From the IMG/VR virus record IMGVR_UViG_3300050014_000090, positions 1 to 55,481 of that record: a stretch of 55,481 nt of DNA; one strand, written 5' to 3'. The stretch comes from a virus (taxonomy: Duplodnaviria > Caudoviricetes). Shown piece by piece: positions 3,532 through 27,067 of this stretch. The notes beneath the pieces are model-generated. The model was not told the origin of the DNA. It did not search any database and saw only the letters and a program-made list of their open reading frames with translations. The position numbers and the translations under genes were made by a program. Position 1 is the first letter of the stretch. Every line of letters begins with the position of its first letter.

Positions 3532-5193
3532 TTAACTCGCATTTGCCGCGAGTTCGTCGTCTAACCCTAATTCCTTTGCCTTCTCGTCATACGCTTCTTG
3601 AATGAGCGTATCGAGTTCTTCCTCTGAGATGATGATCATCTCCTCATCGGCGACCACTGGCTCGGGAACATCAGGAATCACGTCCTTTAGTTCCGCGACT
3701 TCGTGGCCGAGTGGATATGATACGTCAATGACCGGCTCGGTGACTGACTTGCCGTCGTCATCAGGCGGCGTATCAGGTTCCGGCCCTGCGGGTGCGGGTT
3801 TAGGCCCGGCCCCGGGTTTACCTGTCACTTGTGCCAAGACGCCATTCGTCAACTTGACGCCCGAATTATGCGATGTCACTGCGTCTCTAAGGTCGGACTC
3901 ATTCGCCGCACTCAGGACGCGCCCCGCTTTTAGTGTCTCATTAAGTTCGTTGATCTGCTTTTGCTGATCTTCGACCATCTTCTTGAGATCATCAATCTCT
4001 TTATTCACGTTCTCCTCCTCCTTTGTTGGCGAAGTTGTTGTCCATTCCCATGCCGCGCTTGTATCGCCGGTCGTTTCACCGACGGCCGCGCCCTGATAAT
4101 GACTGACATTGGCCGTTTGTCCGCCTGATGTAACATTTACTGCCACCATCTTCGGCGGCTTCTTGTCCGCGTTCTCCTCGCGCTCTCGTATGCGCTCTGT
4201 GACTTCTGTTATGTGAGAGCATTTCTCCACTAACTGATGATTAGTGGTAACGTCCTTTTTCCATTCGAGAGGACTTGGATCGGCGCACTTCGACGGTGGA
4301 TCGTCCTTCTTGTGCAAGTCACACATCGCTTTCTCTACCTGCGCGTGCAGCCAGTTCATGTCAGCCTGTGTGAAACCTGTCATTAGGTTCCCCTGCGCGG
4401 CGAACATGTGCAAGCGCCGGTGATATGCCGACAGATCCACAAGGTTCTCTTTACCGATCCCTGCCAACAGGTCGCTCTTATCGGTGTCAGTTATTGACTT
4501 TGATTCACTCTTGACTCGCTTCATCGCACATCCTTCCTCTGTGCAATAATCGGACATCTCCTTGAGGAACGCCTTGACCATCGCTTTGTCGTGACCGAAT
4601 GTTGCAGCACGATCAATGACCGCTTGCGGATTTGCGGGAACTGGAACGGCTGAGAACTCAAGTAAATCCCATTTGGTGAAGTGCGTGCCGTTGCCAAACA
4701 CGGAACTCATAGGCGATTCCTGTCTCTCCTCATCCTTTTCCTCGATCTCATTCCAATTATACGGATCGAACCCGATCGAGACAGCGTTGAGGAATCCTGT
4801 CAGATACATTCTCCTGACCATAGATCCTCGAAGTCCTGAGAATGATTCGTGATAGTTGTCGTCAGGTTGGAATTCGACGGCCGCCTTGACGCCTTGTTGC
4901 GTGACTTCCTTGCCCGCCTTTATGATCTTGATTGGTTGCGCCCACATCTCGACCGACTTGCCGACCGGAAGGTCATCATACTTGTGCGCCCACTGCATCA
5001 CGGCGTTGTTCGCATAGTTCTCGACCATTATACCGGCCGGGTCAACAATATCGCCGTCTCTATCGCGGACGTCCGTTGTGATCGTGAAGATTAACGGCGA
5101 TTTGTCGTCGTTTGGATCTTCCGCGACGGGTTTATCTACTTTAAAGAGTTTGCGAATGATCTCGCCTTGCTTCACGTCCTTTGCTAATGTCAT
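3532..5193 (-). CDS. HK97-family prohead protease with long acidic scaffold-like C-terminus
   Basis: DRDGDIV, WAH..LPVG, SIGF, LLEFSAVPVPANP; KAGRVLSAAN. Confidence 0.92.
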   Translation of the reverse strand: MTLAKDVKQGEIIRKLFKVDKPVAEDPNDDKSPLIFTITTDVRDRDGDIVDPAGIMVENYANNAVMQWAHKYDDLPVGKSVEMWAQPIKIIKAGKEVTQQGVKAAVEFQPDDNYHESFSGLRGSMVRRMYLTGFLNAVSIGFDPYNWNEIEEKDEERQESPMSSVFGNGTHFTKWDLLEFSAVPVPANPQAVIDRAATFGHDKAMVKAFLKEMSDYCTEEGCAMKRVKSESKSITDTDKSDLLAGIGKENLVDLSAYHRRLHMFAAQGNLMTGFTQADMNWLHAQVEKAMCDLHKKDDPPSKCADPSPLEWKKDVTTNHQLVEKCSHITEVTERIREREENADKKPPKMVAVNVTSGGQTANVSHYQGAAVGETTGDTSAAWEWTTTSPTKEEENVNKEIDDLKKMVEDQQKQINELNETLKAGRVLSAANESDLRDAVTSHNSGVKLTNGVLAQVTGKPGAGPKPAPAGPEPDTPPDDDGKSVTEPVIDVSYPLGHEVAELKDVIPDVPEPVVADEEMIIISEEELDTLIQEAYDEKAKELGLDDELAANAS

Positions 5194-7122: not shown

Positions 7123-7418
7123 TCTTTGTTCCTCCTATCCCTGCGTGAGTCCTCGGCCTCGCACAGTTCACATGATAACATGCGACGTTTGAGCATAAAT
7201 AGTTAAATTGCTCCGTTTGCCAAATAGAGGTCGTGCCGTTGTTGTCGTGCTAAAAAGGGTTCAAAACGGACGACGTCAAGAAGCAGCGATCCGAATTACT
7301 CAAAGGACAAAGGAAAAAAGTCGCGGGATTAACCCGGGCGGACGATCACTCTTGATCTTGGCGTCCCTTTGTTTTCTTCCGTCCCCGATTGAATACGGGT
7401 CGAGTCAATCCCTGCATT

Positions 7419-7463
7419 AAAGAGAGGTGAGGCCCGGGAGAACGAAAGCAAAGACCCGGGCCT
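7419..7463 (-). ncRNA. Candidate hairpin small RNA or terminator with anti-SD tail
   Basis: 9-bp stem AGGCCCGGG/CCCGGGCCT followed by CACCTCTCTTT; ATAATTAAG about 25 nt upstream. Confidence 0.35.
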
Positions 7464-7491
7464 ATTGGCCAGTACTGAAGACGATCCTTAA

Positions 7492-7677
7492 TTATCTTCT
7501 TGCCTTAAAGACCTTGTGAATCTCTTGCAGTAAGTCGTCGATTGCCAACACGACCAATAAGATCGTGAAGATAATCAGGCCGACAATTACCTGATCCGGC
7601 CTTGACTTCGCTGCTCGAATATTGTGACCCTCGCATTCACACGTTCCCTCAAGTTCGCACAGCGCACAGTTGCTCAT
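7492..7677 (-). CDS. Small membrane protein with N-terminal Cys motif
   Basis: ATGA overlap with protease stop; CALC..CECEGH and VIVGLIIFTILLVVLAI. Confidence 0.55.
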   Translation of the reverse strand: MSNCALCELEGTCECEGHNIRAAKSRPDQVIVGLIIFTILLVVLAIDDLLQEIHKVFKARR

Positions 7678-10058: not shown

Positions 10059-10343
10059 CTATCTATACGGCCATAGAAGATCGTCACGTCGTTTGATCAC
10101 GACTGCTCCGGGCCGTTCCTCATCGAGTTCCATAACCTCAATCGGGCCGTCCTTGTGTTGGATCTCGATCGTGTGCTTCGTTGGATGCGGATGATACTCC
10201 GGCTTAATCCCTGTGTCCCAATAGTTCATCAGGCGAATGACCATATCGTCCCAAGTCTCAGTCGGCAATCGATAATGTGTCAGTCGTTCCTTGGTCGTGT
10301 CATAGATCTTAATCGTCCGTGTCTTGCCGTTCATTGGAGCCAT
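10059..10343 (-). CDS. RHH-like DNA-binding protein
   Basis: TIKIYDTTKERL...ETWDDMVIRL pattern. Confidence 0.65.
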   Translation of the reverse strand: MAPMNGKTRTIKIYDTTKERLTHYRLPTETWDDMVIRLMNYWDTGIKPEYHPHPTKHTIEIQHKDGPIEVMELDEERPGAVVIKRRDDLLWPYR

Positions 10344-10468
10344 CGTCTCACCTTACCTTTGCGATCCAATAAGCGATTAATCACCGTGTCATAGTTCTCA
10401 TACCATCCGCTCTCGTCCCATAGTCGCTTAACTGTTGAATCATCAAGCGTGATCGTCGTGTCGGCCAT
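10331..10468 (-). CDS. RHH-like protein (45 aa)
   Basis: TTITLDDSTVKRL...ENYDTVINRLL; GGAGGTGA RBS. Confidence 0.6.
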   Translation of the reverse strand: MADTTITLDDSTVKRLWDESGWYENYDTVINRLLDRKGKVRRWLQ

Positions 10469-10616
10469 TCTCGATCACCTCCATAATGTCGATCCTTGTG
10501 CAGGTTCCGGGCGGTTGGAAGCTGTATATGCTGCCTTTGTCCAGTATCACCTCAAGATATGACGGCGATACGACGCCCGGTTCGATTGTGGTCATCGTTA
10601 TGCAAAGTCTTGTCAT
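10443..10616 (-). CDS. Hypothetical protein (57 aa)
   Basis: GAGGTGA RBS; manual translation. Confidence 0.45.
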   Translation of the reverse strand: MTRLCITMTTIEPGVVSPSYLEVILDKGSIYSFQPPGTCTRIDIMEVIENGRHDDHA

Positions 10617-10717
10617 TGTCTCACCTCTTGAGTTATCGAATATTAAGAAAAATCTTTCCGGTTTAGGATAATTTATCTTCGCGTTCTACCGTGTCCGCCT
10701 ATATCCTGCGTGTTTTT

Positions 10718-15492: not shown

Positions 15493-15493
15493 A

Positions 15494-15640
15494 TTAGAAC
15501 TGACCGTGCTTTTCGAGTAAAACGTCGATTGATTCGCTCATAGTCAATCGCTTGGCTTTTCGTGCTGATTCCTTCAATTGGAAGCGCTTTAACTGCTCCC
15601 GCGTCTTTTTCTCTATTTGGATTGTGGCCAGTTCTTTCAT
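15494..15640 (-). CDS. RHH-like protein (48 aa), probably leaderless
   Basis: ATIQIEKKTREQLK...TMSESIDVLL; TATATA about 25 nt upstream. Confidence 0.6.
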   Translation of the reverse strand: MKELATIQIEKKTREQLKRFQLKESARKAKRLTMSESIDVLLEKHGQF

Positions 15641-15663
15641 GTAATCTCGTATAGGTCGCTCTG

Positions 15664-15684
15664 TGTATATATGTGTTGCTATAT
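15664..15684 (-). promoter_or_regulatory. Archaeal-type TATA promoter with ATAGCAACA motif
   Basis: ATAGCAACACATATATAC; 9-mer shared with 24238-24246. Confidence 0.5.
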
Positions 15685-15695
15685 GCTTATTAAAA

Positions 15696-19030: not shown

Positions 19031-19609
19031 TTAATCGCTCGCCCATTCAACATCAACATAGCCGTTCCACTGAGCCAAAAGAGTATGACCGTAATAATCA
19101 ACGTCGAAGTCATCCATCGTGACGCTGCCATTCGGCTCGAGATAATAAACGACCCATTCGGTCGTATTGGCAAGAGGAAAAACCGCCGAGACCGCGACGA
19201 GCGTTGTGTTCTTGTCGTGGCTTTTGAACTTTATGCGTGTCCTGCCATCATTCGAGATCTCAGTTCGTTGAAAGTCTGACCATTGACCAAACTTTGCCAG
19301 TGTCTTCTCGGCCACAGTTTGCGGCGTCGTTGGATAGTCCACGAAGCGCTTTGGAACCCGGGCCTGTGGCTCAGGATCAGGACGATGCTCCCATGGTTGT
19401 GTATAATCGTCTTCGCACCGAGACTTTTGGTCAACGATGTGATATGCCCGCGCTCTCTCGGCCCGCTCTTGCCAATCGTCTTTTCCACTGATCTCGCCCT
19501 TCATATAGGCGCAATAGATGTCGCAGGGAACGCGGCCTTCCAACACAGCCGCCGCTGCTTTTGGTTTTTGCCTTTTAAGATTGGCAAGCCCGCCCGAGCA
19601 ACCACTCAT
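19031..19609 (-). CDS. Hypothetical protein
   Basis: 192-aa ORF with ATGA coupling. Confidence 0.6.
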   Translation of the reverse strand: MSGCSGGLANLKRQKPKAAAAVLEGRVPCDIYCAYMKGEISGKDDWQERAERARAYHIVDQKSRCEDDYTQPWEHRPDPEPQARVPKRFVDYPTTPQTVAEKTLAKFGQWSDFQRTEISNDGRTRIKFKSHDKNTTLVAVSAVFPLANTTEWVVYYLEPNGSVTMDDFDVDYYGHTLLAQWNGYVDVEWASD

Positions 19610-19824: not shown

Positions 19825-20640
19825 TCATTCTAGATCCATATTTATCTCGTCCCTTGTGTATAGCTCAGGATGATTGAACGCTGCCTCGATGTCCTCGGCC
19901 CGGAATACACTGTCTATGGCCTCTGCGAAAAAACAATAATATTCCTGTTTGAATTCCCAATCGAGCATCCGCGCCTTTTCCTCCATGATGAACGCCTTTT
20001 TAAATCGCGGACACTGGTCGGCGTTGATCTCTATCTTGAGCCATTCCGTCTCATTCTCCCACGCCTGCCAAAAAAAGCCTCGCTTGCCGTGCGGCGTGGA
20101 GAGTAGGACGATCTTGCCGTCGCTTATGTTGAGCATTGGTCGGGCGTTTGTGTATGCCTTCTCATGCACCTGCGCCGCTTCATCGATGATAAGCAGTGTG
20201 ACGTCGGAATAGCCTCGAATGCTATCCGGTGCTTGTCCTGTGAGTGCAATGATTCGTGACTTGTTTTGCAGCTCGAGCCGGTGAACGCTCTCGGTTATTG
20301 AGAGGACGGGACGGCCGATCTGCTTATAGTAGTCGGTGATCTTGCGAAAAGACTCTTTAGCCTGCTCGAGCGTGTGCGAGATTACGATCACCATAGCTCC
20401 GGGTGTGTAGAGTGCATGGTGAAGCGCCATCACTGCGACGATCGAGGACTTGCCGGTTTGCCGGGCGCAGTTAAGGAGGATGCGCTTTGAGTCCGACTCA
20501 AGAACCTCGTATTGCCACTCATCGGGATCGAGACCGAGTGCTTCCGCAAACAGTCCCGGATACTTCTCGAGTGCGAGATAGTCCGAGATCTGCGGGTGCT
20601 CAGTTTTGGCTCGTACTTGCCTCGTTATCGCCATTTGCAT
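19825..20640 (-). CDS. Terminase large subunit ATPase domain, stand-alone gene
   Basis: PDEWQ, Walker A RQTGKS, IRG, Walker B LLIIDEAA, STP.G..G.F, QEY.C.F. Confidence 0.92.
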   Translation of the reverse strand: MQMAITRQVRAKTEHPQISDYLALEKYPGLFAEALGLDPDEWQYEVLESDSKRILLNCARQTGKSSIVAVMALHHALYTPGAMVIVISHTLEQAKESFRKITDYYKQIGRPVLSITESVHRLELQNKSRIIALTGQAPDSIRGYSDVTLLIIDEAAQVHEKAYTNARPMLNISDGKIVLLSTPHGKRGFFWQAWENETEWLKIEINADQCPRFKKAFIMEEKARMLDWEFKQEYYCFFAEAIDSVFRAEDIEAAFNHPELYTRDEINMDLE

Positions 20641-21130
20641 GCTGATACTTCATCATTGCCCTGACAATATTCTTTTGCGTCTTGAGGTCTTGCCCGGCGG
20701 CCGCTTTGATCACCTCGAATAGCTTGTCGACTTCCTCTTTAACGGTGATCTGCATTGGCTCCAAGTGAACGCGACCGAGCGACTGATTCATCTCGAGCGC
20801 CTTAAACTTCATATTGCCAAGTTGCGAGAGCGCCGCGACGCGATCTTTGGCCGGTGTTATTGGATCAAGAGCGATCTCCCATAGATGTCGCTCGACTTCC
20901 TCGAGTCCGTTGAGGTAGTCCTGCACGACAAAGTCGTCGTTTATCTCGGGGATCACAAAGTCTCCCCACGTATGTCGTTTTCTCCAATCCGACCACATTG
21001 CTTGATCGGTGACGCCATACTTGCCCGCCATCTCGCGGATTATAACATTGTGCGGTTCACCGTGGAGATGTCTCGTATACATTTCTATGCGTCGGTTTAG
21101 CAACCTCTTTTGAGGCCCCACTTGTCCCAT
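20600..21130 (-). CDS. Putative terminase small subunit
   Basis: N-terminal HTH-like segment; directly upstream of the ATPase. Confidence 0.6.
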   Translation of the reverse strand: MGQVGPQKRLLNRRIEMYTRHLHGEPHNVIIREMAGKYGVTDQAMWSDWRKRHTWGDFVIPEINDDFVVQDYLNGLEEVERHLWEIALDPITPAKDRVAALSQLGNMKFKALEMNQSLGRVHLEPMQITVKEEVDKLFEVIKAAAGQDLKTQKNIVRAMMKYQHANGDNEASTSQN

Positions 21131-21328
21131 TTAATGCCTCCCGTTTAATTTATACGCATATAAACGATGTTGGCCGGTCTCTATGCGTTCAACGCATCCT
21201 TGCTTAAACATCCGGCGACACTGGTCTTGCGACGTCATAGTGTCGACGCCAAGGATTGCGCTGATCTCCTTGGCAGTCATCGCTCGGCCCGCCTTCTTGA
21301 GGACTGCATAAACCTCAGCTTGACTCAT
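21131..21328 (-). CDS. Winged-HTH protein
   Basis: VY.VL.....MTAKEISAILG...G.VER; start revised to MSQAEV. Confidence 0.6.
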   Translation of the reverse strand: MSQAEVYAVLKKAGRAMTAKEISAILGVDTMTSQDQCRRMFKQGCVERIETGQHRLYAYKLNGRH

Positions 21329-21452
21329 TCCACTCGCGCAAATGCGGATTGCTCTGCGGCCGTTCGCCATTGCTCTGTTTGGTGATACAAAAGGGACAGA
21401 GAGCCGCTCCCTCTTGGATCGGCTTCCCGCAACGACAACAAGGTCGCGGCAT
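21315..21452 (-). CDS. Zinc-ribbon protein (45 aa)
   Basis: CCRCG...LCPFC; manual translation. Confidence 0.5.
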   Translation of the reverse strand: MPRPCCRCGKPIQEGAALCPFCITKQSNGERPQSNPHLREWNESS

Positions 21453-21464
21453 TGCTCACAGTTC

Positions 21465-22640
21465 TCACGCCGATTCGTTGATCCACGCCGACCAGTTCAC
21501 GCCGTCATTCGACGTCTTGAAGTATATGACGTCGTCGGTTCCCATCACTGAGAGGATGATGCACGAATTCATGATGATTGCCGTCGGGTTTGTCCCGGCC
21601 TTGATTCCACCTCCGAGAGTGTTCCACGTTGACCATGCTTTGCCATCATACCGCTTATGCCACATCGCTGAGTCACTTCCGCGAACAAATGTGTCGATTG
21701 TTCCGGGCGTCAGTGACACAGCCGCCGGGGAAGACGTGCAGATCCCGCCGAGCGAGTCCCATGCTGGTAACGGTGTAACGCCAAGGTGACGATGCCATAG
21801 CGCCTCATCATTCTTGACGGCGAAGACGTCGATCGTTTTGTTGTCCCGCGAGCAGAGCGCCGCATCACCGACGATCTTTAATGTTGCAGGTGGAGGAGGT
21901 GGAGGCGGTGTTGGGGTCATCCGGTTCTTTAAAGTGATGTTCGTTGCAGGCCATACATCCATCCATGCCTGATACCAGCTCTGAAACTGATTAAACACGT
22001 TGTTCATATTGGAACCATATCCACCCCAAACGCCTATTCCTGCAAAGGTTATGCCGTTTGCTTCCATCTGTTGAGCAATGTTGATATAGTCCTGTGCGCT
22101 TGAGTGGTTCATCATCCACGTTCCTACACATAGCCCTATTTCTTTAACTCCATGTGCCTTTGCGTGCTGCATGCCCGGCCCCATGACATTCCATCCCCAA
22201 AGATTTGTGTTTGAATCATAGGTTTCCATGTAGCTTACTGCGCCGTATTTTCCTACAGGCCCGGGGTGCGTGACATTCCAAATATCGTCATCAGTGCCAC
22301 CGCCGGTACCCTCGCCGCCATAATCTAAAAACGTCAGGTGACTCATTATCGAGTCTATCTCTGCTGCTTGCTCGGATTCGCCGCCGACGGCGTGCCATCC
22401 TGCCGCGGCTAGGTTTGCGTTGTAGCTGTCTAAACCATTCCATCCTGCTTGACCGTCGTTCCCGTTATTCAAAACAGGTGAAAGTTTAGCGGCTAGGATG
22501 TCATTTACAACGTTTGAAGGTGGAGAACTACCTCCACCGTGAACGATGTAGTGCGCATCAATGATGCCCCCACTTCTAAGTTGTCCTAAGTCATTGTATG
22601 AGTCGCCTGCGACCCAATACACTACGCTATGATTTACCAT
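21465..22640 (-). CDS. Putative hydrolase-like domain + Pro linker + PLL-type lectin repeats (candidate lysin)
   Basis: W.SLGG...S.PA.....ID.FVRG.D..WH repeats; N-domain paralogous to 34779..35522. Confidence 0.65.
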   Translation of the reverse strand: MVNHSVVYWVAGDSYNDLGQLRSGGIIDAHYIVHGGGSSPPSNVVNDILAAKLSPVLNNGNDGQAGWNGLDSYNANLAAAGWHAVGGESEQAAEIDSIMSHLTFLDYGGEGTGGGTDDDIWNVTHPGPVGKYGAVSYMETYDSNTNLWGWNVMGPGMQHAKAHGVKEIGLCVGTWMMNHSSAQDYINIAQQMEANGITFAGIGVWGGYGSNMNNVFNQFQSWYQAWMDVWPATNITLKNRMTPTPPPPPPPATLKIVGDAALCSRDNKTIDVFAVKNDEALWHRHLGVTPLPAWDSLGGICTSSPAAVSLTPGTIDTFVRGSDSAMWHKRYDGKAWSTWNTLGGGIKAGTNPTAIIMNSCIILSVMGTDDVIYFKTSNDGVNWSAWINESA

Positions 22641-22673
22641 TAGATAGCCTCCGGCTTTGTTTTTAAATCGATG

Positions 22674-22760
22674 AAAAAAGAAGAGGGAAGGTGAGACATC
22701 GACGAGGTGGAGATAGGCTCATGAAGATAAGCCAAACTTAGAAACCTCGCCGACGTGACC
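22674..22760 (-). ncRNA. Candidate ~85-nt small RNA with anti-SD 3' tail
   Basis: TATTTAAG about 25 nt upstream; nested 13-bp and 7-bp stems whose G.U pairs work only on the minus strand; CTCACCTTCC then T6. Confidence 0.5.
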
Positions 22761-22896
22761 GTAAAAGAGTTGTCTTGTGGTCTTAAATACCTTATCACTG
22801 TCTCACCTTCTCGTTTGGGGTCGCCTTCAATTTCGGTTCCTGTCACTTATAGTTTCTGATTCCTGTTTGGTCAATTTGCTATGATTGACAATCCCT

Positions 22897-23019
22897 TTAG
22901 TGTCCTGTAAACAACAGGATCGTGAGCCTAATGCTGAGGGCGACGACCCAATACAGTAGGAAGAAATGAAATGCCGTCGATTTCAATACGCTGACGGTCA
23001 AAGATTTATTGTTGGCCAT
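22897..23019 (-). CDS. 40-aa hydrophobic peptide MANNKSLTVSVLKSTAFHFFLLYWVVALSIRLTILLFTGH
   Basis: AAGGTGA RBS; manual translation. Confidence 0.55.
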   Translation of the reverse strand: MANNKSLTVSVLKSTAFHFFLLYWVVALSIRLTILLFTGH

Positions 23020-23038
23020 GTTGTCTCACCTTTTCTCC

Positions 23039-23242
23039 TTAATTCGCTGCGAGTGTTGGAACCGGACTCACCAATTGCGGGTCGGTTGCTCCAAGTTGAT
23101 AGACCGGGATCGTAGTCGGCCGGATCGCCGGGTTCTGCGAGGTCACTGCCGTCGCAGGAGGATAGAATATTACCAATCCCACGACGATAAGCGACGCCAC
23201 GACGACGGCGACGAGTGCGAGCTTTGAGTCTTTGTCGATCAT
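23039..23242 (-). CDS. Small membrane-anchored protein
   Basis: N-terminal hydrophobic helix; ATGA coupling. Confidence 0.6.
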   Translation of the reverse strand: MIDKDSKLALVAVVVASLIVVGLVIFYPPATAVTSQNPAIRPTTIPVYQLGATDPQLVSPVPTLAAN

Positions 23243-23640
23243 AGTTCCCGGTTCTGCGCGTCGTCCTCAAGCGTCGGCTTCGGCTTGTGCTTTGCCACTT
23301 TTATTATGTTTTCCCATTCGTCGCCAGCGTCGGTCGTGTTGATCTCGATAAGAAGTCTGCACTTCTCACCGACCAGTTCCGCGACGTCAAATTCCATCGG
23401 GGTCTCGTTGGGTCGCAGAGACGATACGAGACCAAATAGTGCGCTGCTCGGCATAAACGACTTGTTGTATCGCTTCTTTAGTTCTGTGCCGTCAATATCG
23501 AACGTGACATAGATCACGTCTTTGACGCCAAAAGCTGTTTGTACTCCGTCTTCCGCTGTGACGTCCTTGATAACGGCGTCATATACGCCTTCCTCAAGTC
23601 GCGCCTTGCGCGGTTCACGTTTAACAACTGTGCTGCTCAT
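23239..23640 (-). CDS. Putative OB-fold ssDNA-binding protein (DUF669-like)
   Basis: EG.Y.A.I.DV...F....D..ELVG..C.L.I...W.NI pattern; GGAGG RBS. Confidence 0.6.
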   Translation of the reverse strand: MSSTVVKREPRKARLEEGVYDAVIKDVTAEDGVQTAFGVKDVIYVTFDIDGTELKKRYNKSFMPSSALFGLVSSLRPNETPMEFDVAELVGEKCRLLIEINTTDAGDEWENIIKVAKHKPKPTLEDDAQNREL

Positions 23641-23653
23641 AGTTCATTCCTCC

Positions 23654-23839
23654 TTAAAATTGTGGCTGCTCGGTCTTCCGAGCATCGCGTTCCTTTGTGG
23701 CCTGTTCCTCGGCCCGATCCAACAACTGATCCAATAGATCGACTGATTTAGTGATCGCGTCCTCAACGCTTGTAAATACCGATTCCTCATCGTCCGCGAT
23801 CCTCAGCGTCACCATGCCGATCTGCAAAGCTATCTCCAT
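23654..23839 (-). CDS. Hypothetical protein
   Basis: GAGGTGA RBS. Confidence 0.5.
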   Translation of the reverse strand: MEIALQIGMVTLRIADDEESVFTSVEDAITKSVDLLDQLLDRAEEQATKERDARKTEQPQF

Positions 23840-23844
23840 TTATT

Positions 23845-23976
23845 TCACCTCACCTCAAATTTATTACAGGTATCTGTTCCAAGATGGTTTGCTCTGTCCT
23901 TTTTACACCAAAGATACGGTGCTGACGGATTGCGACTATGCTTGCAGTTTGAGCACACTTCTTTGACCTTTACCAT
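23845..23976 (-). CDS. 43-aa Cys-motif protein
   Basis: CSNC-x12-C-x12-CNKF; manual translation. Confidence 0.5.
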   Translation of the reverse strand: MVKVKEVCSNCKHSRNPSAPYLWCKKDRANHLGTDTCNKFEVR

Positions 23977-23991
23977 GGGTTTTTTTCTCAT

Positions 23992-24177
23992 TTAAAAGAC
24001 AGGATTATTAATGCCGTCGATTTCTCGAATGACATCTAAAAGGACGTCGCCCATTGAAACGCGAGTCCCTGTCTCATGTTGTATCTCACCGGCTCGCTTT
24101 AGGAGCCACGCATGCACCTCATCCGGGACATAGATTCCCTTGTGGGACTCCATAAATGCTTTGCTGTGTTTTTTCAT
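23992..24177 (-). CDS. RHH-like protein, paralog of 26843..27067
   Basis: HKGIYV..EVHA.L...AGEIQ.E.G..VSM.D. Confidence 0.6.
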   Translation of the reverse strand: MKKHSKAFMESHKGIYVPDEVHAWLLKRAGEIQHETGTRVSMGDVLLDVIREIDGINNPVF

Positions 24178-24222
24178 TGACTTTAATCTTCACCTCTTTT
24201 AAGTAAGCTACTATATCCTTTT

Positions 24223-24246
24223 AATGCTATATATGCTTGTTGCTAT
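24223..24246 (-). promoter_or_regulatory. TATA promoter with shared motifs
   Basis: ATAGCAACA-AGC-ATATATAGCATT; 11-mer identical to 25901-25911. Confidence 0.5.
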
Positions 24247-24262
24247 TTGAATTATCAAACAT

Positions 24263-24688
24263 TCAAAAGTCAAGTAGTGCATATTCTTCAGAAGGAAGTC
24301 CGCCGTCGTGTGCATATACCATCGTTCCTTGTCTATTCTCATTATGTCCTAAAAGCTGTCGGATTACGTTGATAGGCATACCTCTTGATTCCGCATAAAC
24401 GACGAAACTGTGTCGAAACGTATGAGGGTGTAAATTATTAACTCCTGCAAACTTCCCGTATTTCTTGACGATGTTGTAAACCTGTGTTCGACGGATAGCG
24501 AAAACAGGTTCCCCCTGTTCGACGTTGTGCTGCAAGATATAGATTTTAAGCGCCTTTTCTGTTGTTTCATCAACAAACACGTCTCGGCGGCCCTTGTGTT
24601 TTAGATTAGGAACGCTTATGCTTGTCCTTGCCAATGTTTGCGTGATGTAGATAGGACAAATTGCTAAAAGTTCGCTTACACGCTTGTT
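24263..24688 (-). pseudogene. Tyrosine recombinase catalytic domain with no start codon before box I
   Basis: RVSELL, HTFRHS, LLGH, TMVY in one frame; in-frame TGA at 24689-24691. Confidence 0.7.
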
Positions 24689-25115
24689 TCAAGCGTTCCG
24701 TTTCTTGTTTCTTTTCTTTTCTTTTTGCTAATCTCTGTTTCTTCTCTGCCTCTGTCCTCGCTTTATCTGCAAGATTTTCTATCTTAATCAACCGTTCCAT
24801 ATACGGATCGATAAACGCGCGAGTCATATGATCCTCGATAAGTTTGTGAGTCTTTGTTCCGTGTGTTCCCTTCTTATCTCGATATGCGTCGGGCGCTTTC
24901 ATTGCTTCCTTCTTAATCTCGTCCCAATCAAGGAGCCGCTCTCCCCTATGTGCGGCCTCGACCTGCTCTCGCTGATAGTCGAGTGAAGTCCTCATTTTCC
25001 ATTTATCGAGTCCTTTGTCTATTACATCAAGGATGGTTGTGACGCCGGGATATTCGTTCCCTTCGGTGTCTTGATATGCCCTCCCATATTTTCTATATAC
25101 TCGTTTTAAGCCCAT
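24606..25115 (-). CDS. Protein resembling the N-terminal part of phage PD-(D/E)XK exonucleases; catalytic domain not visible
   Basis: YPGVTTIL....K.L.KW...GT.TH.LIE then coiled coil. Confidence 0.55.
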   Translation of the reverse strand: MGLKRVYRKYGRAYQDTEGNEYPGVTTILDVIDKGLDKWKMRTSLDYQREQVEAAHRGERLLDWDEIKKEAMKAPDAYRDKKGTHGTKTHKLIEDHMTRAFIDPYMERLIKIENLADKARTEAEKKQRLAKRKEKKQETERLKQACKRTFSNLSYLHHANIGKDKHKRS

Positions 25116-25883: not shown

Positions 25884-26122
25884 TGAGGATAGAACGCCTC
25901 AATGCTATATAACAATAACCAAATAACTAAATATCTCGCTATTCTGAGGGACGGCCCCCACCCTAAAAAATTGAGCACAACATTAATATATACAGAACAG
26001 AAACAGATACACGAACCTATTTTAGCGGCAATTCTTATAGGCGGCTATTTAGCCGTCAATTTGTGGTCACTTGAGGACAATCTTTTTTCATGGGGTCATC
26101 CTCGGAGAAGTGAGATATTTGG

Positions 26123-26542: not shown

Positions 26543-26570
26543 AAAAAATAGGCTACGAATAGCCTATTAA
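26543..26570 (-). terminator. Intrinsic terminator-like hairpin
   Basis: AATAGGCTA-TTCG-TAGCCTATT followed by T run. Confidence 0.65.
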
Positions 26571-26574
26571 TAGA

Positions 26575-26874
26575 CTACTTTTTCATCTCAAGCATGAGCT
26601 GTTGCGTCCTCTTGACAGTGTCGTTTATCACGATGCCCATGCCGATCACGTATCCCGCGATCACGGAACCCGCTGCAATCGGGACGACAATGTTGCCACT
26701 CGCTGCAAGCGTCGCAATGCCGCCGATGATGGCTATCACGATAATGACGATCTTGTGCGATGCCGCACTCAGATCGGCCACATCCTCAGCCAGTGTATGC
26801 AACACGACGCCGATCACAAGACCCGCGACGAGACACACAAAATCAACCGTGCTCGGATCGACTACTATTGCCAT
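26575..26874 (-). CDS. Multi-pass membrane protein (holin candidate)
   Basis: About three hydrophobic segments; GGAGGTGA RBS. Confidence 0.55.
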   Translation of the reverse strand: MAIVVDPSTVDFVCLVAGLVIGVVLHTLAEDVADLSAASHKIVIIVIAIIGGIATLAASGNIVVPIAAGSVIAGYVIGMGIVINDTVKRTQQLMLEMKK

Positions 26875-27067
26875 TGTTCTCACCTCCCTCTGTTTTCTCG
26901 ATTCGCTTTGCCATATTCTCTATTGCGTCGGAAACGCTAACCTCCTTACCCCATTCGATTTGAAGCTTCCCCGCGAATCGTATGATCGCCGCATGTGCAG
27001 CGTTCGTTATATGGATTGTCTTATGTTCTCTGAACCAACGACTCTGACTTTGTGGAATGCCCCTCAT
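26843..27067 (-). CDS. RHH-like protein
   Basis: HKTIHIT..AHA.I...AG.LQ.E.G..VSVSDAI. Confidence 0.55.
   Translation of the reverse strand: MRGIPQSQSRWFREHKTIHITNAAHAAIIRFAGKLQIEWGKEVSVSDAIENMAKRIEKTEGGENNGNSSRSEHG

Follow-up and report, generated by a model that had tools for sequence, protein, structure and literature searches.

A candidate RNA module that may mask ribosome-binding sites lies between a small membrane peptide gene and a putative lysin gene in a probable archaeal tailed virus

We analysed a 55,481-bp stretch of viral DNA, hereafter the window, which is the whole of IMG/VR record IMGVR_UViG_3300050014_000090 (completeness estimate 74%) and comes from an uncultivated peat virus whose sequence recurs across peat and freshwater metagenomes. 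Essentially all genes are on the minus strand, which is the sense (coding) strand here. Our subject is a 256-nt, apparently non-coding spacer between the gene for a 40-amino-acid (aa) membrane peptide and the gene for a putative lysin. It holds a nested hairpin, a pyrimidine-rich tail complementary to ribosome-binding sites (RBSs) and a run of six T (T6), together called the element, and our tentative reading is that this RNA masks the RBS of the peptide gene in cis. The features of the locus, in sense-strand order, are as follows.

23022..23038, minus strand: copy 1 of the RBS motif, AAGGTGAGACA, serving the peptide gene, with AAGGAGA immediately before it; predicted to pair with the tail
22897..23019, minus strand: gene for the 40-aa single-pass membrane peptide, a holin-like candidate
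22640..22846, minus strand: open reading frame (ORF) running across the element, 68 aa long, or 52 aa if begun at GTG 22798; stop codon and lysin ATG overlap as TAATG
22799..22812, minus strand: copy 2 of the RBS motif, GAGAAGGTGAGACA, followed by GTG 22798-22796
22782..22789, minus strand: TATA-like box TATTTAAG, about 30 nt ahead of the hairpin base; possible promoter element
22696..22756, minus strand: nested hairpin, outer stem 13 bp, inner stem 7 bp (22716-22733), CUUC loop
22680..22699, minus strand: pyrimidine-rich anti-RBS tail ATGTCTCACCTTCCCTCTTC
22674..22679, minus strand: T6 run, likely transcript end
22660..22667, minus strand: second TATA-like box TTTAAAAA, 27 nt ahead of the lysin ATG; putative function only
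21465..22640, minus strand: putative lysin, 391 aa, with an N-terminal alpha/beta-barrel-like domain and C-terminal PLL-type lectin blades

Homologues show that the 40-aa ORF is a genuine gene, which encodes a conserved small membrane protein. Its product has a basic N-terminus and, at the C-terminus, one hydrophobic segment some 23 residues long. Among 1.84 billion representatives, a profile search yielded a family of four clusters of 38-47 aa (window peptide P0074; relatives P0076 and P0077), and the related lineage L014 encodes a 38-aa homologue at the same position, the two sharing the C-terminus YWxVALSIRLTIxLFTGH. Alignments of the peptide against viral contigs found the L014 contig only, and the peptide matched no Pfam or PHROG family and no holin family. 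Small membrane ORFs directly precede lysin homologues in other lineages (48 aa in L019, 37 aa in L022 and 75 aa in L039), so the peptide resembles a holin more than a stand-alone type I toxin; its synteny, a small membrane protein gene beside that of a putative lytic enzyme, is that of a holin.

A preliminary description of this locus had interpreted it as a type I toxin-antitoxin-like pair in which a small RNA opposes the peptide. The anti-RBS match, the membrane peptide and the adjacency to the lysin gene on which it drew all stand, and the 40-aa ORF, a candidate toxin, is within the size (<~60 aa) and hydrophobicity expected of a type I toxin. The type I label itself fits less well than that of a holin-like peptide in a lysis cassette. 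The candidate RNA is encoded on the peptide gene's own strand, 140-220 nt past its stop, and is neither antisense nor divergent.

Directly before the peptide gene, a 67-aa protein with an N-terminal hydrophobic segment is encoded at 23039-23242 (minus strand); the start of its gene overlaps the stop of a 133-aa gene and its own stop falls inside the peptide RBS region, so that two small membrane proteins precede the putative lysin. We also found two direct repeats here. The first 15 nt of the lysin gene (22626-22640) resemble the 15 nt just past the peptide stop (22878-22892; 13/15), and 22610-22624 in the lysin N-terminus resembles 22944-22958 in the peptide gene (14/15), both encoding YWV. 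These repeats may be relics of a spacer insertion between formerly adjacent genes, or chance.

The putative lysin has 73 homologues and further counterparts that include P0001 (95%) and one in L014 that is 68% identical, and it carries its own RBS, GGAGG. Its structure model (pLDDT 88.4) matched PLL lectins in Foldseek at E ~1e-10, and hevamine, tryptophan synthase alpha and other TIM barrels at E ~5e-4; a PDB profile search returned PLL lectins as the sole match, over residues 254-387. The N-terminal 240 residues thus have weak alpha/beta-barrel matches only, and "lysin" therefore stays a candidate label. The element does lie directly before this gene, as had been described. Searches with the lysin as a single protein against viral contigs and as an alignment against genome contigs found no relative, and none of 80 loci of the large terminase subunit (TerL) from genomes had the peptide, the lysin or the element, the 133-aa neighbour being present in L055 only.

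The hairpin pairs 22756-22744 with 22708-22696 in its outer stem, including two G.U pairs (G22754.U22698 and G22750.U22702), and 22733-22727 with 22722-22716 in its inner stem, including one U.G pair. This is the 13-bp stem enclosing a 7-bp stem of the preliminary description, recovered here both by reading and by folding. Its minimum free energy (MFE) is -32.1 kcal/mol against -13.96 +/- 2.66 for shuffles (z -6.82; 0/200 shuffles as good), and that of the opposite strand is -21.0 kcal/mol (z -2.08; 5/200 as good). A weaker plus-strand fold is expected, as three pairs are G.U on the minus strand only, a strand bias that had likewise been noticed. The tail ATGTCTCACCTTCCCTCTTC (22699-22680) and then the T6 (22679-22674) follow, and the box TATTTAAG precedes the stem at exactly 22789-22782 (minus strand), all as first reported. 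Pyrimidine tracts (at least 19 of 22 positions) number 4 on the sense strand, the tail included, and 28 on the other strand. The second TATA-like box begins 6 nt after the T6. Taken together, the first box and the T-run suggest an RNA of about 85 nt.

No known family accounts for the element: Rfam gave no match at gathering score in the whole window, and none at E up to 5 in 22550-23100. A blastn search of 21400-23700 against a phage collection gave no match. Scanning viral contigs for the 16-nt tail returned 11 loci, none similar to the window beyond one unrelated tblastx match, and scanning them for both stem arms with a variable gap returned at least 118 chance loci, none related. Enrichment of anti-Shine-Dalgarno hexamers in intergenic DNA was not convincing (2/8 CACCT[CT][CT]).

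The tail contains an 11-mer, TGTCTCACCTT, that is the exact complement of the peptide RBS motif AAGGTGAGACA. The motif occurs exactly at 23022-23032 and 22799-22809 (both minus strand), its complement at 22688-22698, and copies with one mismatch at 10617-10627 and 10344-10354 (both minus strand), which makes 5 matches in the window against 0.72 expected; none of 100 shuffles reached at least 5. All four sense copies stand 4-6 nt before start codons. The preliminary description had claimed complementarity to the RBSs at the peptide gene, 22799, 10617 and 10343, and every one of these sites was found. The predicted partners of the tail elsewhere in the window are listed here.

26878..26891, minus strand: RBS of a 99-aa membrane protein, the strongest predicted trans partner of the tail
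10617..10627, minus strand: RBS of a 57-aa gene, GAGGTGAGACA, predicted partner; tail duplex -18.6 kcal/mol
10344..10354, minus strand: RBS of a 94-aa gene, AAGGTGAGACG, predicted partner; tail duplex -21.5 kcal/mol

Between the spacer and the translation-initiation region (TIR) of the peptide gene, the exact complement is 11 nt long and can be extended to about 17 bp, and none of 300 dinucleotide shuffles reached 11 nt. The best duplex with this TIR is -28.8 kcal/mol against -14.7 +/- 2.1 for shuffles, a level reached by 1 of 216 equal-length genome segments, namely the element itself; a repeat search paired the peptide RBS with 22683-22698 (16 nt, 88% complementary). With the tail alone, the TIR of the gene at 26874 ranked first of 88 (-25.2 kcal/mol), followed by that of the peptide gene (-24.0) and those of the 10343 gene and of GTG 22798 (-21.5 each). 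Partners at or below -20 kcal/mol were 4 of the 88 TIRs and 1 of 2219 background windows. In a looser scan, the tail reached -27.3 kcal/mol with the 26874 TIR, and purine-rich coding stretches also scored well. The anti-RBS complementarity is real and far above chance; the set of targets is a prediction only, because any anti-Shine-Dalgarno-like sequence favours strong RBSs.

Two of these predicted partners belong to genes with some annotation. The 99-aa protein (26575-26874, minus strand) has three hydrophobic segments, and its RBS, AGAGGGAGGTGAGA, is the best predicted partner of the tail in the window; the gene is followed by a textbook hairpin and T6 terminator at 26543-26574. It has a homologue in L022 that is about 80% identical, and its TM7S3/TM198-like Pfam match is weak and under the cut-off. 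The 94-aa protein (10059-10343, minus strand) matches DUF7557 above the Pfam cut-off (28.7 vs 25 bits).

No T-run separates the peptide stop (22897) from the element, and the tail is therefore expected in cis, on the 3' end of the peptide mRNA itself. We evaluated such transcripts by equilibrium partition-function folding in silico. The tail paired with the peptide RBS with P 0.91, 0.91 and 0.86 in transcripts that run from 23050, 23250 and 23650 to 22674, and with P 0.91 in a model that reaches 22600; the MFE fold of a 421-nt transcript contains the same pairing. Moreover, pairing of the RBS with the module was 0.91 against 0.34 +/- 0.27 when the module was shuffled, and 0/60 shuffles reached it. 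In silico, then, a 3'-terminal mRNA segment pairs with the TIR, as it does in hok-type mRNAs.

We tentatively favour, while holding it somewhat short of probable, the reading that the 256-nt spacer acts as a coding-strand RNA module that ends the transcription unit and masks the peptide RBS in cis. Transcripts of the peptide gene would run through copy 2 and the hairpin and end at the T6 (22679), and their last ~20 nt (UGUCUCACCUUCCCUCUUC) would fold back on the peptide Shine-Dalgarno region (AAGGAGAAAAGGUGAGACA). This would hide the Shine-Dalgarno from ribosomes, and the holin-like peptide would be made sparingly until the pairing opens. The opener may be a ribosome that starts at the identical copy 2 and reads through the tail; competition by copy 2, 3' trimming, or read-through into the lysin-terminase block are other possibilities. 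A role for the hairpin could be to stabilise the 3' end or to help terminate transcription, and release might depend on copy 2 or on the 52-codon frame. The sequence shows the features and their predicted pairing, and from these we infer where transcripts end, that the peptide is repressed and how it is released. The strand-specific structure, the rarity of the pyrimidine tail on the sense strand, the intergenic bias of T-runs and the ends made of a hairpin and a T-run elsewhere in this virus and its relatives also speak for this reading. That a lysis peptide would be controlled is plausible because small membrane ORFs precede lysin homologues elsewhere.

The related lineage L014 offers a comparison. 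Its spacer between the peptide and lysin genes is 453 nt long, against 256 nt in the window, and the distance from the peptide stop to a pyrimidine-rich stretch and U-run is about 220 nt in both. A 101-nt domain in this spacer is structured (z -3.5; 0/200 shuffles), displays UAAUCCUCCC and UCACCUCC in two hairpin loops, is preceded at 30-31 nt by a TTTAnGAC-type box, TTTATGAC, and is followed by ACCCUUCUUUGC and U7; the whole spacer gave no significant fold (z -1.86 and -0.74). The 9-mer GGGAGGATT occurs four times in the 42-kb L014 record, and three copies lie within 460 nt: two of these serve as RBSs, one for the peptide gene and one for the gene ahead of it, and the third is inverted and lies in the spacer. 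The recurrence of a pyrimidine tail after the peptide gene in the window and in L014 is suggestive only; such a tail accompanies 4 of 26 runs of T6 or longer in relatives and is hence no generic terminator feature.

Natural variation adds little. L014, L030, L031 and L041 are identical over the 623 nt compared, and L046 differs at few positions, three of them substitutions in the structured domain (a G.U turned into A-U, a change at an unpaired position and a change that disrupts a pair), which are too few for any inference of covariation. Contigs from four DNA runs (X7, X13, X15 and X19) covering parts of 22300-23400 show no differences within 22400-23300, the element itself being covered by contigs of X7 and X15 only; six differences at 22332-22365 all come from one unrelated-looking contig.

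Several observations weigh against masking in cis. Copy 2 is nearer to the tail than copy 1 is and pairs with it at P 0.91 when copy 1 is absent, and equilibrium folding takes no account of ribosomes or of the order in which the RNA is made, an order that would favour copy 2. Copy 2 is also followed by GTG 22798 at a 4-nt spacing, the geometry of a real start site (as at 10616 and 10343). Ribosomes that end on the upstream 67-aa gene could open the operon-internal peptide RBS. The hairpin is a strong but not singular structure: by GC-adjusted MFE it ranks 21 of 4616 overlapping 96-nt windows (top 0.5%), and the sense strand of the window has 16 contiguous stems of at least 12 bp. Furthermore, L014, the only related lineage, appears to support the pairing marginally or not at all. 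Its 9-nt complement to its own peptide RBS was reached by 8/300 shuffles and its best duplex by 30/300; its RBS-to-module pairing of 0.58 against 0.62 with shuffled modules carries no signal (34/60 shuffles as high); and its tail-to-upstream helix was matched by 4/71 background segments.

Several other readings of the element draw on expression signals and on the probable host. The features concerned are these.

19825-20640, minus strand: ATPase of the large terminase, encoded as a split gene
21131-21370: winged-helix protein, TrmB/MarR-like
15677-15684, 24225-24232 and 25903-25910, minus strand: the motif ATATAGCA

The sequences nearest to the terminase ATPase (60-67% identity) all come from archaeal metagenome-assembled genomes (MAGs), one of them a 2.31-Mb chromosome, with the labels Methanobacteriota, Euryarchaeota, Halobacteriota and Methanomicrobia; bacterial matches are at most 48% identical. 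On these grounds a bacterial host was rejected, and the virus would be a tailed virus of a methanogen-type archaeon, a statement that follows its relatives and is not a host assignment. Other lines gave little: the window has no tRNA genes, an ESM Atlas search with the capsid protein returned no host information, and a search of phage records with the portal returned distant bacterial-phage matches only (identity at most 33%).

Under the archaeal reading, the signals that matter are TATA-box promoters and oligo-T terminators. In keeping with it, scanning for sigma-70 promoters gave 1 site where 4.6 were expected, with none near the element. In archaea, a run of at least five T on the sense strand that closes a unit is a termination signal; the T6 at 22679-22674 is such a run, provided that the host is archaeal as its relatives suggest. 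Runs of six or more T number 11 on the sense strand, 6 of them within the intergenic 5.2% of the window, and 4 of the 10 sense-strand TTTAA[AG]A words fall in the same 5.2%. The motif ATATAGCA has 4 matches against 0.79 expected and recurs in three intergenic gaps. Its copy at 25903 lies about 29 nt ahead of ATG 25883, which has no Shine-Dalgarno, an arrangement that looks like an archaeal TATA box with a leaderless mRNA. A similar layout is seen in the 203-nt gap 15493-15695 (minus strand), where an apparent unlisted short ORF, read by eye, starts MKELATIQIEKK about 33 nt past a TATATAC box and without a Shine-Dalgarno.

Given these signals, the element may also be read as a separate small RNA of about 85 nt that starts at ~22756-22760, about 25-30 nt past the TATA-like box, ends at the T6 and uses its 3' tail to block several viral RBSs in trans, namely those of the 40-aa peptide, the 99-aa protein (26874), ORF 22798 and the genes at 10343 and 10616. 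We regard this as possible, on the doubtful side. A TATA-like box lies ~30 nt before the first stem base, the L014 box TTTAnGAC has a matching spacing, TATA-like motifs are enriched in gaps, and the archaeal terminase relatives fit promoters of this type. The best tail partners are TIRs, the L014 domain presents its anti-RBS sequences in loops with GGGAGGATT clustered nearby, and RBS-masking small RNAs are known in Methanosarcina (sRNA154 and sRNA41; PMC5867862). Against it, the box poorly resembles ATATAGCA, the other promoter-like motif of the virus, and AT-rich spacers inflate counts of TATA-like words. Only 46% of the tail is unpaired when the RNA is modelled in isolation (87 nt), an anti-Shine-Dalgarno-like sequence scores well on any strong RBS, and the support from L014 is marginal.

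Expression data are silent on the choice. Of the 23 sequencing runs listed, 20 contain the stretch and none of these is RNA; two metatranscriptomes from one study hold practically none of its words, and this lookup is evidence in neither direction.

The T-run and the boxes would also fit an element that only marks a boundary between transcription units: a compound terminator or leader in which copy 2 and the tail form the base helix, a U-rich run follows and a new promoter begins, at the junction of the small-gene block and the lysin-terminase block. The match to the peptide RBS would then be a by-product of the RBS-like copy 2. Lysin, the small terminase subunit (TerS) and TerL lie downstream, and the second TATA-like box follows the T6 at 6 nt. 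A 201-nt fold is closed by the copy 2/tail helix (P 0.91) with the U-rich CCUCUUCUUUUUU behind it, and L014 has a comparable helix between an upstream segment and the tail right before its U7, although that helix is not significant (4/71 background segments). T-runs are over-represented in gaps, and other ends made of a hairpin and a T-run are seen in the window (26548 and 14600) and in relatives (L016, L039 and L055). We consider this boundary unlikely to be the whole explanation. It leaves unexplained that the tail fits the distant peptide RBS (~17 bp, -24 to -29 kcal/mol) better than it fits copy 2 (-21.5 kcal/mol), and an intrinsic-terminator scan of 21000-25000 passed over the site owing to the 17 nt between the 13-bp stem and the T6. 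A T-run within 0-2 nt of a stem is found here only loosely, if the copy 2/tail helix is taken as the stem.

The L055 case is an observation of its own: at 4395-4432 (plus strand), in a provirus-like region of a Methanomicrobia MAG, a homologue of the 133-aa gene is followed by an 11-bp hairpin and T9, so that hairpin-plus-T-run ends occur in this virus group inside an archaeal genome bin.

The ORF that spans the element raises the question of whether the element is translated. It is probably no conserved protein gene: a search of 5.8 billion proteins found none with three 5-residue words in common with it, in a collection from which the window's own spanning ORF is likewise missing, whereas the 40-aa peptide did turn up (as P0074) in the separate profile search, and tblastx against relatives matched the peptide gene and nothing in 22640-22846. 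At the same position L014 has a frame of 6 codons only. The coding score is 0.042 (5th percentile), against 0.359 +/- 0.167 for real 52-codon windows, and another frame over the same DNA scores higher (0.183), so there is no frame preference. The preliminary description had set its RNA interpretation against the chance that ORF 22640..22846 is conserved as a protein; neither the homologue searches nor the coding score indicates such conservation.

An alternative is that the region encodes a protein or a translated leader. In that scheme, translation would start at GTG 22798 with copy 2 as RBS and proceed over 52 codons to TAATG, coupling translation of the lysin or controlling terminator read-through, for which pyrBI-type attenuation is the model. 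The same 11-mer RBS at a 4-nt spacing serves the genes at 10616 and 10343, stop and start overlap in TAATG, and the frame is open for 52 to 68 codons. The low coding score, the lack of homologues in the searches above, the 6-codon frame in L014 and the lysin's own GGAGG RBS make the leader improbable as the main function. A translation start at GTG 22798 could still be part of the cis-masking mechanism.

Finally, the three 11-bp copies could be DNA operators that bind a viral protein, for example the winged-helix protein of 21131-21370, two of them upstream of the two TATA-like boxes, with the RNA complementarity incidental. Three copies do lie within 345 bp in mixed orientation with the TrmB/MarR-like gene nearby, and the distances to the two TATA-like boxes are 9 nt from the end of copy 2 and 20 nt from that of the inverted copy. 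We hold this to be very improbable, given that all four sense copies are placed as RBSs before start codons, that the structure is strand-specific through its G.U pairs, and that the copies are neither palindromic nor regularly spaced in their arrangement.

Masking in cis has precedents among bacterial type I toxin mRNAs, which are inhibited by fold-back: hok through fbi/tac pairing, and Helicobacter aapA1 through long-distance 5'-3' pairing. The viral locus resembles them in that a small hydrophobic peptide is encoded on an mRNA predicted to be locked by pairing of its 3' end with the TIR. It differs in that the peptide gene closes a viral operon beside a putative lysin gene, that no antisense antitoxin RNA is evident, and that the predicted pairing is at an internal RBS and not at the 5' end. 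No type I system is known in Archaea, according to a 2026 preprint (10.64898/2026.06.17.732947).

In Methanosarcina mazei, loop 2 of sRNA154 and sRNA41 carry anti-RBS sequences, and a block of translation that includes internal RBSs of polycistronic mRNAs has been proposed (PMC5867862). The element shares with these RNAs an anti-RBS sequence in a structured RNA and, probably, a related host lineage. It has no sequence or Rfam similarity to them; they are chromosomal and experimentally detected, whereas the element is viral, predicted, and on the same strand downstream of its best target. In Firmicutes, C-rich anti-Shine-Dalgarno small RNAs (RsaE, and RNAIII with its UCCC motifs) pair unpaired pyrimidine motifs with several Shine-Dalgarnos. 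The L014 element similarly presents CCUCC-type motifs in two hairpin loops; the Firmicutes RNAs have bacterial hosts and no homology to it, and in the window the motif is a 3' tail and not a loop.

The gene order also recalls the late leader of lambda (pR'-6S RNA-tR'), a short, structured, terminated transcript upstream of the lysis and terminase genes that has no anti-RBS function and depends on the Q antiterminator. Both would be structured transcripts that stop at a terminator immediately upstream of lysin and terminase genes; here, by contrast, the holin-like gene is upstream of the terminator and not downstream, and no antiterminator is known. Like a holin-endolysin cassette, the locus sets a small membrane-protein gene beside that of a putative envelope-degrading enzyme, as do the 37-75 aa ORFs of other lineages, with the difference that no holin family matches and the catalytic domain of the enzyme has no assignment. 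Holins of archaeal viruses remain elusive, as a 2024 review puts it (PMC10791045).

Our literature search, by terms in full text and supplementary files aside, found no described anti-RBS RNA beside a holin or lysis gene of an archaeal virus; such files might list small RNAs or terminators of methanogen viruses and so affect novelty. We view the element as a candidate case of a known mechanism, RBS masking by RNA, and its place in what may be the lysis region of an archaeal virus as unusual. The wider proposition would be that an archaeal tailed virus times or restrains lysis with its own RNA module, a 3' untranslated region and/or an 85-nt RNA, whose 16S-like anti-Shine-Dalgarno tail masks the RBSs of the 40-aa and 99-aa membrane proteins. 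Archaea and their viruses would thereby gain their first described anti-RBS riboregulator of viral origin and their first type-I-like or hok-like translational lock. We judge this proposition conceivable but rather doubtful in this full form. How archaeal tailed viruses breach the membrane and time lysis is largely unknown. This locus is a testable candidate, with a conserved 40-aa peptide, a putative glycosidase-lectin lysin and an RNA element that predicts RBS masking. Were the masking true, an archaeal virus would be shown to control a lysis-type peptide post-transcriptionally, and a defined sequence pair would be at hand for compensatory mutations; were the element a terminator only, the site would be an ordinary operon boundary.

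A second hairpin was noted elsewhere in the window. It is formed by GGCCCGGG...CCCGGGCC in 7410-7495 (minus strand) of the 369-nt gap 7123-7491, is followed by the anti-Shine-Dalgarno-like TCACCTCTCTTTAAT, and its fold is not significant (z -1.3). The complement of that sequence, GAGAGGTGAGG, is similar to the RBSs of two genes, whose starts are at 23839 and 13376, and a T6 (7319-7314) and a T8 (6798-6791) lie nearby.

Elsewhere in the window, portal, HK97-type capsid and Mu-F-like proteins were recognised, along with a siphovirus tail protein; the matches of a prohead protease (sub-threshold) and of a tape-measure protein (under the Pfam cut-off) are weak. The terminase ATPase is a separate ORF of about 270 aa both in the window and at four related loci (L014, L017, L018 and L022), and a second ORF of the terminase region (19031-19609, minus strand), without Pfam match, has the nuclease part as a candidate identity only. 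A 123-aa ORF (24263-24634, minus strand) matches the phage-integrase family in its C-terminal part only (E 6e-13), and the 169-aa ORF upstream that overlaps it (24606-25115, minus strand) matches no family; the pair (24263-25115) may be a split or frameshifted integrase.

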